Shown: positions 1,419-32,222, counted from the stretch's first letter. The stretch is DNA of 64,000 bases from Falsiroseomonas sp. (GCF_030695085.1 NZ_JAUYTS010000079.1:15208-79207), one strand, 5' to 3'. Numbers and translations: made by a program. Notes: generated from the sequence alone by a model not told the origin.

Positions 1419-3277
<1,859 letters not shown>

Positions 3278-28237: not shown

Positions 28238-29698
28238 ATGCTCGTCCTCGATCACGATCGGGCTGGTGGCTATTGGGGCGCGATCTACGCCTTCTCCGCC
28301 GTGCGCGGATTGCGCGTGGTGATCGACGGCCCGGTGGGCTGCGAGAATCTGCCCGTCACCGCCGTGCTGCACTACACGGATGCGCTGCCACCGCATGAGT
28401 TGCCGGTGGTCGTCACCGGCCTCGACGAAGACAGCCTGTCCAAGAACGGCACCGAGGATTCCATGCGCCGCGCCGCCGGCACGCAGGACCGGGAATTGCC
28501 GGCCGTGGTCGTCACCGGCTCGATCGCAGAGATGATCGGTGGTGGCGTGACGCCACAGGGCAGCAACCTGCAGCGCTTCATCTGCCGCACCATCGACGAG
28601 GATCAGTGGCAGGCCGCGGATCGCGCCATCATGTGGCTGTGGACCGAATTCGGCGCCCGCGGCCGCAAGATGCGCGCGCGCAACCCAAAGCTCGGCACCA
28701 CGCCGCGCGTGAACATCATCGGCCCGATCTACGGCACCTTCAACATGCCGTCCGACCTGGCCGAGATCCGCCGCCTGGTCGAAGGCATCGGTTGCGAAGT
28801 GAACCTGGTGTTCCCGCTCGGCAGCCATGTCGAGGATATCGCCAAGCTGCCGGATGCGGATGTCAACGTCTGCATGTATCGCGAATTCGGCCAGAAGCTG
28901 TGCGAGGAGCTGGAACGCCCCTGGCTGCGCGCACCGATGGGCCTGTTCGCCACCACCAATTTCCTCCGCAAGCTCGGCGAGATGACGGGCCTCGACCCCG
29001 AGCCGTTCATCGAGCGGGAGAAGCACACCACGATCAAGCCGATCTGGGATCTGTGGCGCAGCGTCACGCAGGATTTCTTCGCCTCCGCCAGCTTCGCGGT
29101 CGTCGCCACCGATACCTACACGCGCGGCCTGCAGCGCTTCCTCGGCGAGGAAATGGGCGTGCCCTGTGCCTTCGCCTTCAGCCGCATGGCCGGCGAGAAG
29201 CCGGATAATGCGGCGGTGCGCCAGGCGATGAAGAACTCGCCGCCGCTGGTGCTGTTCGGCAGCTACAATGAACGCATGTATGCGGCGGAGCTGAAGTCCC
29301 GCGCCATGTACATCCCGGCCAGCTTCCCGGGTGCGATCATCCGCCGTGCCACAGGCACGCCCTTCATGGGCTACGCCGGCGCGACCTACATCGTGCAGGA
29401 ATACTGCAACGCGCTGTTCGACGCGCTGTTCCACATCCTGCCGCTCGGCACCGACCTCGACCGCGTGGATCCCACGCCGGCGCGTGCGGCGGAGCCGTGG
29501 GACGATGATGCCGTCGCGTTGCTCGATGCGCATGTGGAGGCCGAGCCCTTCCTGCTTCGGATCTCGGCGGCCAAGCGGCTGCGCGAGTCGGTGGAGCAGG
29601 CAGCGCGCGCGGCTGGCGAGCCACGAATTTCCCGCGAACGCGTCCGGCACACGCTGGGCGATGTGGTCGCGCACCCCGTTGCAGAGGGCGTCGCATGA
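28238..29698 (+). CDS. bchZ: Chlorophyllide reductase subunit Z
   Basis: [25 protein letters not shown] and [11 protein letters not shown] motifs. Confidence 0.97.
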
Positions 29699-29837: not shown

Positions 29838-30017
29838 ATGGCCGAAAGCTCAAAGACCGGCCTGACCGAAGGCGAGGCACGCGAGATCCACTCCCTGCTG
29901 ATCCAGGGTTGGGCGTTCTCCGTGTTCGCTTCGATGGGCGCGCATATCCTGGTGTGGCTGTGGCGCCCGCTGGTCTACGGCAACCAGATCGTCCCGCCGG
30001 ACTGGCGCTTCTTCTGA
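29838..30017 (+). CDS. pufB: LH1 beta subunit (divergent, 59 aa)
   Basis: TGLTEGEAREIH (His-18), TM helix with His0 (GAH) and VWLWRP; GGAGG RBS; first puf gene after bchZ. This is the 3' end of ORF 29331..30017. Confidence 0.92.
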   Translation: MAESSKTGLTEGEAREIHSLLIQGWAFSVFASMGAHILVWLWRPLVYGNQIVPPDWRFF

Positions 30018-30053
30018 GGCGCGGTGTTCGACGAGAGATAGGAGATACAAGCA

Positions 30054-30239
30054 ATGCATAAGATCTGGATGGTAGTCGACCCGCGCCGTTCGCTGTTCCT
30101 GGCGATGGTCGGCGTGATCGCCGTGTCGGGGTTGCTGCACGTCGTCGTGCTCGCATCCCCCCGCTACTGCGACCATTGGGGCTGGTGCGCGACGCCTGCG
30201 ACCTTCACGCCGGGGCAACCGGTCGGAGCCCTGCGTTAA
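30054..30239 (+). CDS. pufA: LH1 alpha subunit (divergent, 61 aa)
   Basis: MHKIWMVVDPRR N-terminus and TM helix with His0 (LLH); GGAG RBS; lies between pufB and pufL. Confidence 0.92.
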   Translation: MHKIWMVVDPRRSLFLAMVGVIAVSGLLHVVVLASPRYCDHWGWCATPATFTPGQPVGALR

Positions 30240-30253
30240 AGCAGGGCGAAGGC

Positions 30254-30328
30254 GCCGGTGTCGCTCCGCGGCAGCGGGCGAGGCCAGTACAGCGGCCCTC
30301 GTCCGCTGCCCGGGACGACGACACAGGC
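30254..30328 (+). other. pufA-pufL intercistronic stem-loop (probable mRNA stability element or partial terminator)
   Basis: Inner stem GGCAGCGGGCGAGGCC (30270-30285) pairs with GGCCCTCGTCCGCTGCC (30294-30310), extended by outer pairing; analogous to the known pufBA stabilising hairpin. Confidence 0.7.
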
Positions 30329-30368
30329 AGGCGGGCACTAGGCCCCGCCCATAAGGGAGCGTCATGCG

Positions 30369-31196
30369 ATGGCGATAATGACTTTCGAGCGGAAATATCG
30401 CGTCCGCGGGGGCACCCTGGTGGGCGGCGACCTGTTCGATTTCTGGATAGGCCCGTTCTGGATCGGGTTCTTTGGGGTCACCACGGCCTTCTTCACCTTC
30501 CTCGGTGTGGGCCTGATCCTGATGGGCGCGGCGATGGGTGGCACCTTCAACCCCTGGCTCATCAACATCGCACCGCCGGACCTCAGCTATGGTCTGCGCC
30601 TGGCGCCGATGGCCGAGGGTGGGCTCTGGCAGGCGATCACGGTGTGCGCGATTGGCGCCTTCGTGTCGTGGACACTTCGCCAGGCCGAGATCTCCCGCAA
30701 GCTGGGCATGGGCTATCACATCCCCATCGCCTACAGCGTTGCGGTCTTCGCCTACATCACGCTGGTGGTCATCCGCCCCGTGCTGATGGGCGCCTGGGGA
30801 CACGGTTTCCCCTACGGCATTTTCAGCCACCTCGATTGGGTTTCCAACGTCGGCTACCAGCACCTGCACTTCCACTATAACCCGGCGCACATGCTGGCGG
30901 TGACGTTCTTCTTCACCACCACGCTCGCGCTGTCGATGCATGGTGGCCTGGTGCTGTCCGCGCTGAATCCGGCCAAGGGCGAAGTGGTGAAGACGGCCGA
31001 ACATGAGAACACCTACTTCCGCGACCTGATCGGCTACTCGATCGGCACGCTCGGCATCCATCGCCTCGGTCTGTTCCTGGCGCTGTCGGCGGGGTTCTGG
31101 AGCGCGGTGTGCATTGTCATCAGCGGGCCGTTCTGGACCCAGGGCTGGCCGGAATGGTGGGGCTGGTGGCTCAACCTGCCGATCTGGAACAAGTGA
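30369..31196 (+). CDS. pufL: Reaction center L subunit
   Basis: [29 protein letters not shown] (His L168/L173), SMHG and GTLGIHRLG motifs. Confidence 0.99.
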
Positions 31197-31217
31197 CGGG
31201 AAGGGGGGATCACGCAG

Positions 31218-32222
31218 ATGCCTGAATATCAGAACCTCTTTACCCGGGTGCAGGTCCGGGGGCCGGTGCCCTATCCGGGTACGCCGATGGGCACCGCCCA
31301 GCTGCTCGCGGGCAACTCCGAACGCGAGACGCCTGGCACCTTTGTCAGCCTGTTCGGCAAGATCGGAGATGCCCAGGTCGGGCCCGTCTATCTCGGCACG
31401 CTCGGCGTGCTCTCGATCATCTTCGGCTTCATCGCCTTCGAGATCATCGGCCTCAACATGCTGGCCTCCGTGAACTGGGACGTCGTCCAGTTCATCCGTC
31501 AGCTTTTCTGGCTGGCGCTGGAGCCGCCTTCGGCTGAATACGGGCTTCGCATTCCGCCGCTGCGCGAAGGCGGCTGGTGGATCGCCGCCGGCTTCTGCCT
31601 GACGGTGTCCATCCTGCTGTGGTGGGCGCGGACCTACCGCCGCGCACGTGCACTCGGCATGGGCACGCATGTGGCCTGGGCCTTCGCCGCCGCGATCTGG
31701 CTGTATCTGGTTCTGGGCTTCATCCGCCCCGTGCTGATGGGGTCCTGGAGCGAGGCGGTGCCCTTCGGCATCTTCCCGCATCTCGACTGGACCGCGGCAT
31801 TCTCCATTCGCTACGGCAACCTGTTCTACAACCCGTTCCATGCGCTTTCGATCGTGTTCCTGTACGGCTCCACCCTGCTGTTCGCCATGCATGGTGCGAC
31901 CATCCTGGCACTGGGCCGCTACGGCGGTGAGCGTGAGATCGAGCTGGTGCTGGATCGTGGCACGGCGGCTGAACGTGGTGCGTTGTTCTGGCGCTGGTGC
32001 ATGGGCTTCAATGCCAGCTTCGAGAGCATCCATCGCTGGGCCTGGTGGTTCGCCGTGCTCTGCCCGCTGACAGGCGGCATCGGCATCCTGCTGACCGGCA
32101 CGGTGGTGGACAACTGGTACCTTTGGGCCGTCGATCGCCACTTCGCCCCGGCCTATCCGCAGATCTGGGAACCGGTCATCGACCCGGCCCTCGCTGCCCC
32201 GATGCAAGGAGCGCCTCGATGA
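31218..32222 (+). CDS. pufM: Reaction center M subunit
   Basis: [22 protein letters not shown] (His M202), FAMHG and [10 protein letters not shown] motifs. Confidence 0.99.

Follow-up and report, generated by a model that had tools for sequence, protein, structure and literature searches.

The present study identifies a pair of cysteines, Cys39 and Cys45, that brackets a four-residue insertion on the predicted periplasmic side of the LH1 α-polypeptide of a Falsiroseomonas-like bacterium. From comparisons of sequence we predict, with moderate confidence, that the two residues form an intrachain disulfide that staples a clade-specific DHxG loop; the bond itself, its stabilizing role and its link to the 856-nm phenotype of cultured relatives are what we infer from the data below. 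The kind of protein is known, and what is new is the combination of Cys pair and loop in an LH1 α, a statement whose scope is the PDB and the literature searched: the motif is absent from all PDB chains in a sequence search of the PDB, and no description of the Cys pair or the loop was found in the literature searched (LH1 disulfide/cysteine, Roseococcus/Roseomonas photocomplexes, and the motif letters).

The window, that is, the whole stretch of DNA that was analyzed, is 64,000 nucleotides long and contains a pufBALM block at positions 29838-32222, immediately 3′ of bchZ (28238-29698). On the + strand the block comprises pufB (29838..30017; LH1 β, 59 residues plus a stop codon, from the ORF list and its translation, with His36 as the ligand), pufA (30054..30239; LH1 α, 61 residues plus a stop codon, from the ORF list and a match to the Pfam LHC family PF00556), pufL (30369-31196) and pufM (31218-32222). 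The order bchZ-pufB-pufA-pufL-pufM, established from the ORF list and Pfam, is as expected for an LH1 α gene. The pufA product, MHKIWMVVDPRRSLFLAMVGVIAVSGLLHVVVLASPRYCDHWGWCATPATFTPGQPVGALR, scores 31.9 bits against PF00556 (cut-off 23), with residues 1-35 covered, and the pufB product scores 19 bits against Pfam LHC, under the cut-off. By its sequence pufA is an LH1 α gene, and the displaced Trp described below is a variant trait and no argument against membership. The 5.1-Mb genome carries only one pufBA pair and only one α, and no LH2 was found in it. The α shares 98% identity with its counterparts in Falsiroseomonas frigidaquae, Roseomonas oleicola and a number of Falsiroseomonas strains, and such matches place the host among the Acetobacteraceae/Roseomonadaceae, as an aerobic anoxygenic phototroph resembling Falsiroseomonas. 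The 129-bp spacer between pufA and pufL (30240-30368) is GC-rich and has inverted-repeat-like stretches, for example gcggcagcgggcga...cgtccgctgcccg; this spacer is the usual site of an mRNA-stabilizing hairpin in puf operons.

Residues 29-45 of the α read H29VVVLASPRY-C39-DHWG-W44-C45. His29 (CAC, 30138..30140, + strand), the BChl Mg ligand in the TM helix, is assigned by alignment: it is invariant in 81 of 81 aligned α sequences and aligns with the ligand α-His29 of Gemmatimonas phototrophica LH1, where α-His29 coordinates BChl and α-Trp40 hydrogen bonds to the BChl C3-acetyl group (PMC8849296). The motif Y38-C39-D40-H41-W42-G43-W44-C45, read directly from the sequence, occupies 30165..30188 on the + strand, with Y38 encoded at 30165-30167 and A46 at 30189-30191. 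The proximal Cys39 (TGC, 30168..30170) sits at the canonical +10 position and directly precedes the insertion D40-H41-W42-G43 (30171..30182), which is defined against canonical RY/F-N-W α sequences by a HMMER gap in which RY-C-[DHWG]-W-C aligns to RY-S-[----]-W-I of the Gemmatimonas-type chains 9h19 and 7o0u. The insertion therefore falls between canonical +10 and +11. Trp44 (30183..30185) aligns with W40 of Gemmatimonas LH1 α and is the putative homologue of the canonical α-Trp+11, moved by the insertion to +15, so that the residue at His+11 in the window α is Asp40, not Trp; among the 171 distinct insertion-type sequences described below, position 44 is Trp in 162 and Phe in 9. The distal Cys45 (TGC, 30186..30188) follows directly after this Trp. 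Beyond it lies the predicted periplasmic tail A46...TFTPGQPV...R61 (30189..30236), recognized by its conservation, in which T50, F51, P53, G54 and Q55 each reach 90% conservation or more in close homologues.

In an AlphaFold2 model of the monomer, computed without pigments from the 81-sequence alignment, residues 10-34 are helical and residues 35-61 form a non-helical coil (pLDDT ~72-78). The motif thus lies just beyond the end of the TM helix at residue 34, with both Cys C-terminal to it, and the first-pass annotation, whose span 30165-30191 covers Y38 to A46, was right to place YCDHWGWC immediately after the helix. A periplasmic location of both Cys is predicted from the topology, N-terminus in and C-terminus out, taken from solved LH1 structures; in every solved LH1 complex the α C-terminus faces the periplasm (PMC10214105). 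The α has exactly two Cys, C39 and C45, and the β has none, so no thiol needs a partner from another chain.

These features set the window α apart from two groups of structurally characterized chains with which it was compared. Its closest relatives in the PDB are 9h19, 7o0u and 7vrj_A (E ~1e-6; ...SSQRYSWIENG), that is, α-polypeptides of the Gemmatimonas/gamma/betaproteobacterial type (9h19/9h22 and 7o0u, with Allochromatium tepidum α2, 7vrj_A), which share with it the MH[K/R]IW start, DPRR, His29 and SS[P/Q]RY. Unlike the window α, however, they continue as RYSW, with Trp at +11, no insertion and no Cys, and LH1 of this type absorbs at 863-868 nm, compared with ~856 nm for two cultured motif carriers (PMC12654162). 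The second group is represented by Rhodopila globiformis (7xxf), a member of the same bacterial family with the α at the same operon position, and occurs in 20 family genomes, some of them in carrier genera. Its α, MWRxWLLFDPRR...HFILLSTDRFNWL[E/D]GP, has Trp at +11 and no Cys, and is accompanied by a β with WRPW and Trp at +9. Rhodopila 7xxf_A matches the window α with an E value of only 0.016, and the Rhodopila LH1 absorbs at 879 nm. The earlier expectation that an ordinary LH1 α reads FNWL at this point agrees with the 20 same-family α sequences that read ...STDRFNWLEG, and with 7xxf_A, which reads likewise. That LH1 α chains usually have no cysteines there also proved correct: a Cys after the His ligand was found in 0 of 40 canonical α sequences, and Cys is described as rare in purple-bacterial LH proteins (PMC11659472).

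The motif is strongly conserved within its clade. A word-based homologue search gave 32 α sequences at 59-97% identity, with C45 in all 32, C39 in 31, and S35, P36, R37, Y38, D40, H41 and G43 invariant. A genome scan, using one genome per species and the peptide pattern RYCDH[WL]G[WF], matched at least 93 species, of which 80 loci were kept; C39 is part of this pattern, so that its count is biased, but C45 lies outside it and was present in 80 of 80 loci. Both Cys are thus clearly retained in homologues, beyond what chance would give; a lack of conservation was among the conditions that the earlier proposal had named as refuting it. At least 93 Roseomonas- and Roseococcus-type species of the Acetobacteraceae carry the motif in the form RYCDH[W/L/V]G[W/F]C, and 133 distinct sequences of the enlarged set described below show it. 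Carriers belong to Falsiroseomonas, Roseomonas, Neoroseomonas, Plastoroseomonas, Paeniroseomonas and Roseococcus (including R. thiosulfatophilus RB-3), and further to Rubritepida flocculans, Paracraurococcus, Dankookia, Roseicella and Sediminicoccus; the named carriers are aerobic phototrophs. Two MAGs, one under the label Bosea thiooxidans and the other under Asaia bogorensis, are the only carriers whose genus-level name lies outside the Roseomonas and Roseococcus types. Among 401 genomes sampled from the same GTDB family, LHC genes were present in 154 and the motif in 23 (9 of 143 genera). An exhaustive phmmer search with the 61-residue α against 1.8 billion representatives returned only two true relatives (P0034 and P0035), both with the motif. 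Two other matches, P0033 (1307 residues) and P0036 (542 residues), were rejected as tandem-repeat low-complexity artefacts with many matches to α residues 27-59, unrelated to LH1.

Codon usage across the loci indicates that this conservation extends to the protein rather than to the DNA. Ser35, Pro36 and Arg37 are each encoded by four codons and Gly43 by three, Asp40 is divided between GAC and GAT (44:26) and His41 between CAT and CAC (32:38). Residues 35-45 remain fixed despite these synonymous changes, and residues 46-52 vary freely. The retention of residues 35-45 while the codons change points to purifying selection on the whole segment. Rare departures within the loop (P0045, P0050, P0063 and P0054; RYCYHLGWC, RYCDYHGWC and RYCDFLGWC) retain both Cys, and these forms show that neither D40 nor H41 is strictly invariant.

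When the alignment was used for a profile search, the set grew to 120 α sequences, which fall into three classes after ...LSSPRY. The first, C-DH[W/L/V]G-[W/F]-C, has the insertion and both Cys; the second, [A/S/G]-DHLG-W-G, has the insertion and no Cys; the third, N-W-[L/I], is canonical, with neither insertion nor Cys. Profile-search α sequences, cluster members and genome loci together comprise 171 distinct insertion-type sequences, of which 133 have both Cys, 34 have neither, four have C45 only and none has C39 only. The Cys-less sisters (RY[A/S/G]DHLGWG; for example, P0082, P0086 and P0092-P0099) share the insertion and keep D, H, G and W, but both Cys are jointly replaced, in each case by a small residue, A/S/G at 39 and G at 45. 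Since D40 and H41 are kept without the Cys, they appear to have a role independent of them. The nearest Cys-less forms are P0082 and P0086, with loci L108-L110 (GC 0.68-0.70), and they have the same β, ending ...PDWRFF. A more distant Cys-less subgroup has a different β set and an extra LHC gene, unlike the window locus. In loci L104-L107 (positions 2583-3183), with an α ending ...RYSDHLGWG, the order is bchZ, a 49-residue canonical β, a 66-residue β-like protein, α, pufL, pufM and pufC; the 66-residue protein (...HLSWRTWFPG...) has no Pfam match, and two β-like genes therefore precede one α.

A tree of 135 distinct α sequences was built from 37 N-terminal and TM columns, with the motif columns omitted, and is poorly resolved. 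In it the Cys-less forms are a basal grade and the Cys forms make up approximately one clade, with a possible second origin (P0146/P0088 beside P0086). An independent-pairs sign test on this 37-column tree was not significant and cannot reach significance. The paired switch represents one or two events only, so the association of the two Cys is not statistically independent and is largely one inherited event. The four C45-only sequences, RYYDHLGWC (P0059 and P0142), RYGDHLGWC (P0144) and RYSDHLGFC (P0030), are all terminal leaves. P0059 was found on four contigs and RYYDHLGWC in two sources; P0030 looks error-ridden. P0059, P0142 and P0144 come from Paracraurococcus-like metagenome contigs and have a C39 site one base change from TGC. 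Either these are genuine lineages in which C39 was lost, or the short contigs contain sequencing errors. An unpaired C45 seems to be tolerated, unless the C45-only sequences are sequencing errors.

The β-polypeptide of the same operon is also unusual. Its canonical Trp+9 position is occupied by Leu45, after which comes a 14-residue tail, VYGNQIVPPDWRFF, so that the C terminus reads L45-VYGNQIVPPDWRFF59 (29970..30014, + strand). The tail co-occurs with the α loop: it ends ...VPPDWR[F/M/L]F in 80 of 80 motif loci and is found also in the Cys-less sister loci L108-L110. Its presence in Cys-less loci suggests that the tail co-evolved with the α loop and not with the Cys pair, and that both loop and tail are older than the pair. 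The canonical α of the family, MWRIWLLFDPRR...HFILLSTDRFNWLEGP, has Trp at His+11 and is accompanied by a β ending ...WRPWLPG with Trp at His+9. This Rhodopila type of LH1 and the very different Roseococcus type (RYCDHxGWC, β ...PDWRFF) are found side by side in a single GTDB family and, in g6, g7, g32 and g51, in the same genus (loci L084-L103), a distribution that suggests, on these sequences, that members of the family have exchanged the puf operon or the entire photosynthesis gene cluster.

Collectively, these observations lead us to propose a model in which the loop arose first, as the Cys-less sisters would attest, and was only afterwards braced covalently by the Cys pair. A bond between C39 and C45 would close a C-x5-C ring of seven residues at the periplasmic face of the LH1 α and so staple the base of a D-H-x-G loop inserted just before the equivalent of Trp+11. 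In an α-helix, residues i and i+6 are too far apart for a disulfide, and small secreted peptides often contain cyclic C-x5-C heptapeptide rings; such a ring needs a turn, and G43 is invariant within the segment. The joint gain of the Cys, the insertion that they bracket and the small residues in the Cys-less forms favor a contact pair, as expected of an intrachain disulfide. Oxidizing machinery is encoded in the same genome, with four to five DsbA-family proteins (94-140 bits, four of them >90) and one DsbB (86.7 bits). The staple would hold W44, perhaps along with H41 and Y38, in place with respect to the α-bound BChl and the β tail, and the braced α loop and the β tail (...PPDWRFF) may together rebuild a periplasmic pigment-binding collar.

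This model may bear on the spectroscopy of the clade. Both canonical positions for hydrogen bonds to the BChl C3-acetyl groups would be vacated here, with Asp at α+11 and Leu at β+9. In Rba. sphaeroides LH1, loss of the α-Trp hydrogen bond moves the absorption to 853 nm and loss of the β bond causes a shift of ~5 nm, and the instability of the double α/β Trp mutant prevents its assembly (PMC10214105). Given that both positions are non-Trp in the window proteins and that the double mutant is unstable, a need for extra stabilization is plausible. The LH1 complexes of Roseococcus thiosulfatophilus and Paracraurococcus ruber absorb at 856 nm and that of a Roseomonas strain (sp. CK155) at 854 nm; no LH1 of other aerobic phototrophs lies further to the blue, and a 2025 review gives no sequence explanation for these values (PMC12654162). 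For Craurococcus roseus the value is 872 nm. The motif is present in R. thiosulfatophilus (L047) and P. ruber (P0141), the two cultured 856-nm carriers. The predicted outcome of the model is thus a blue-shifted core antenna (~854-856 nm) in which ring stability is rescued by the staple; the loop and the tail would cause the blue shift, and the disulfide would compensate for the stability that is lost.

Of the three options originally put forward for the Cys pair, the intrachain disulfide gained ground from the paired Cys and the bracketed insertion, the metal site lost ground because D and H are kept without Cys, and the interchain ring is a less probable candidate. The earlier proposal had not recognized the motif as an insertion that moves the canonical Trp+11, nor that this insertion predates the Cys pair. 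In an interchain ring C45 would bond to the C39 (or C45) of the neighboring α, covalently linking the inner LH1 ring on its periplasmic face. Two Cys per α and none in the β is indeed the stoichiometry needed for a head-to-tail chain, the paired gain and loss fits it as well as it fits the intrachain model, C45-only variants could still form C45-C45 dimers, and the periplasmic C-termini of neighboring α-polypeptides lie side by side in solved LH1 rings (PMC10214105). We nevertheless regard interchain bonds as unlikely: the Cys are six residues apart around Gly43 in a non-helical segment, the small A/S/G and G residues of the sisters suggest a contact inside one chain, and covalent links between subunits of solved LH1 complexes were not found in the literature searched. 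It is also established of Dsb biology that DsbA joins consecutive Cys on the emerging chain, which would be before ring assembly. A related proposal, to which we assign only a slim chance, is that the pair is not a passive staple but a redox-responsive element with a reversible disulfide, or the means by which the LH1 ring is covalently closed head to tail. In its redox version, formation of the disulfide in an oxidizing periplasm would gate how the core antenna assembles, how stable it is or how it transfers energy, and so couple light harvesting to oxygen in obligately aerobic phototrophs. A redox-responsive element or a closed ring, if true, would be the first for bacterial antennas.

A metal site, in which C39, H41 and C45, with or without D40, would chelate a soft metal (Zn2+, Cu+ or similar) at each α, would have its model in the Ca2+ ring of Thermochromatium tepidum LH1. 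Within the clade C, D, H and C show little or no variation, and metal ions at the α and β C-termini are known to tune and stabilize LH1 (PMC10214105 and PMC11659472). The ligand set is not, however, conserved as a unit: D40 and H41 are kept equally in the 34 Cys-less sisters, so that their conservation is not explained by a Cys2-His-Asp site, which weakens the option. Furthermore, free periplasmic thiols are expected to be oxidized in an obligate aerobe with DsbA and DsbB, and a core complex with ~16 soft-metal sites would be a costly arrangement with no known precedent. The likeness to the Ca2+-binding LH1 complexes of T. tepidum and Thiorhodovibrio strain 970 lies in the presence of stabilizing and color-tuning elements at the periplasmic C-termini of α and β, as proposed here; in strain 970 a His beside the Trp belongs to a hydrogen-bond network with BChl (PMC10214105). 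Those complexes, in contrast, use oxygen ligands and the motif WxxDxI/V and are red-shifted (PMC11659472), whereas the window α has Cys residues, the cultured carriers are blue-shifted, and WxxDxI/V is absent from the post-helix sequence SPRYCDHWGWCATPATF of the window α. A metal site is, then, quite improbable.

We hold it to be similarly improbable that one or both Cys persist as free thiols, serving as hydrogen-bond partners or polar tuners of BChl, as with β-Cys36 of Roseospirillum parvum, or as sacrificial scavengers of ROS beside the pigments. Thiol-BChl hydrogen bonds are seen in R. parvum LH1 (PMC11659472), aerobic phototrophs are exposed to singlet oxygen (PMC12654162), and the retention of C45 after loss of C39 in four sequences hints at a value of its own. 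This reading, however, leaves the joint gain and the symmetric placement around the insertion unexplained, and an oxidizing periplasm with Dsb enzymes argues against stable thiols. The precedent is also of another kind: the rare LH1 Cys residues that affect pigment tuning in R. parvum and Halorhodospira halochloris (α-Cys36 and β-Cys36) are single thiols within the membrane near the His ligand (PMC11659472), whereas the window α has a C-x5-C pair that is predicted to be periplasmic. That the pair is a neutral, hitch-hiking marker of its lineage is very unlikely, even though it was gained only once or twice and Cys-less sisters with the same loop and β tail evidently work, because it is retained in 133 distinct sequences from at least nine genera at ~40% divergence elsewhere, with positions 42 and 46-52 varying, and because an unpaired or useless periplasmic Cys is normally selected against. 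Heme-c (CxxCH), lipobox and CuA-type motifs do not fit in spacing or context.

The intrachain disulfide that we favor has parallels in neighboring components of the photosynthetic apparatus. The periplasmic disulfide Cys170-Cys172 of Rhodopila globiformis RC-M has been resolved, but it lies in the RC and not in a repeated antenna polypeptide; likewise, the Cys10-Cys59 disulfide of Dinoroseobacter shibae protein-O has been resolved, but in an accessory subunit. In the literature searched, a disulfide in an antenna polypeptide was not found.

LH1 is among the best-studied of membrane pigment-protein complexes, with dozens of solved structures, and to our knowledge none of these has a disulfide or a Cys pair in its repeated antenna polypeptides. 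The finding leaves known principles of light harvesting unchanged. It does define a clade with three departures from the canonical complex, namely, a DHxG loop that displaces the α-Trp+11, the loss of the β-Trp+9 together with a new tail, and a Cys pair predicted to brace the loop, with the Cys-less sister forms serving as a natural control. This clade includes classic aerobic phototrophs such as Roseococcus thiosulfatophilus and Paracraurococcus ruber, as well as many Roseomonas and Falsiroseomonas, and for these organisms the model gives a testable structural hypothesis for the 856-nm phenotype. Furthermore, it suggests how their LH1 ring may remain stable while lacking both of the hydrogen bonds that, when removed together, leave Rhodobacter LH1 unable to assemble.
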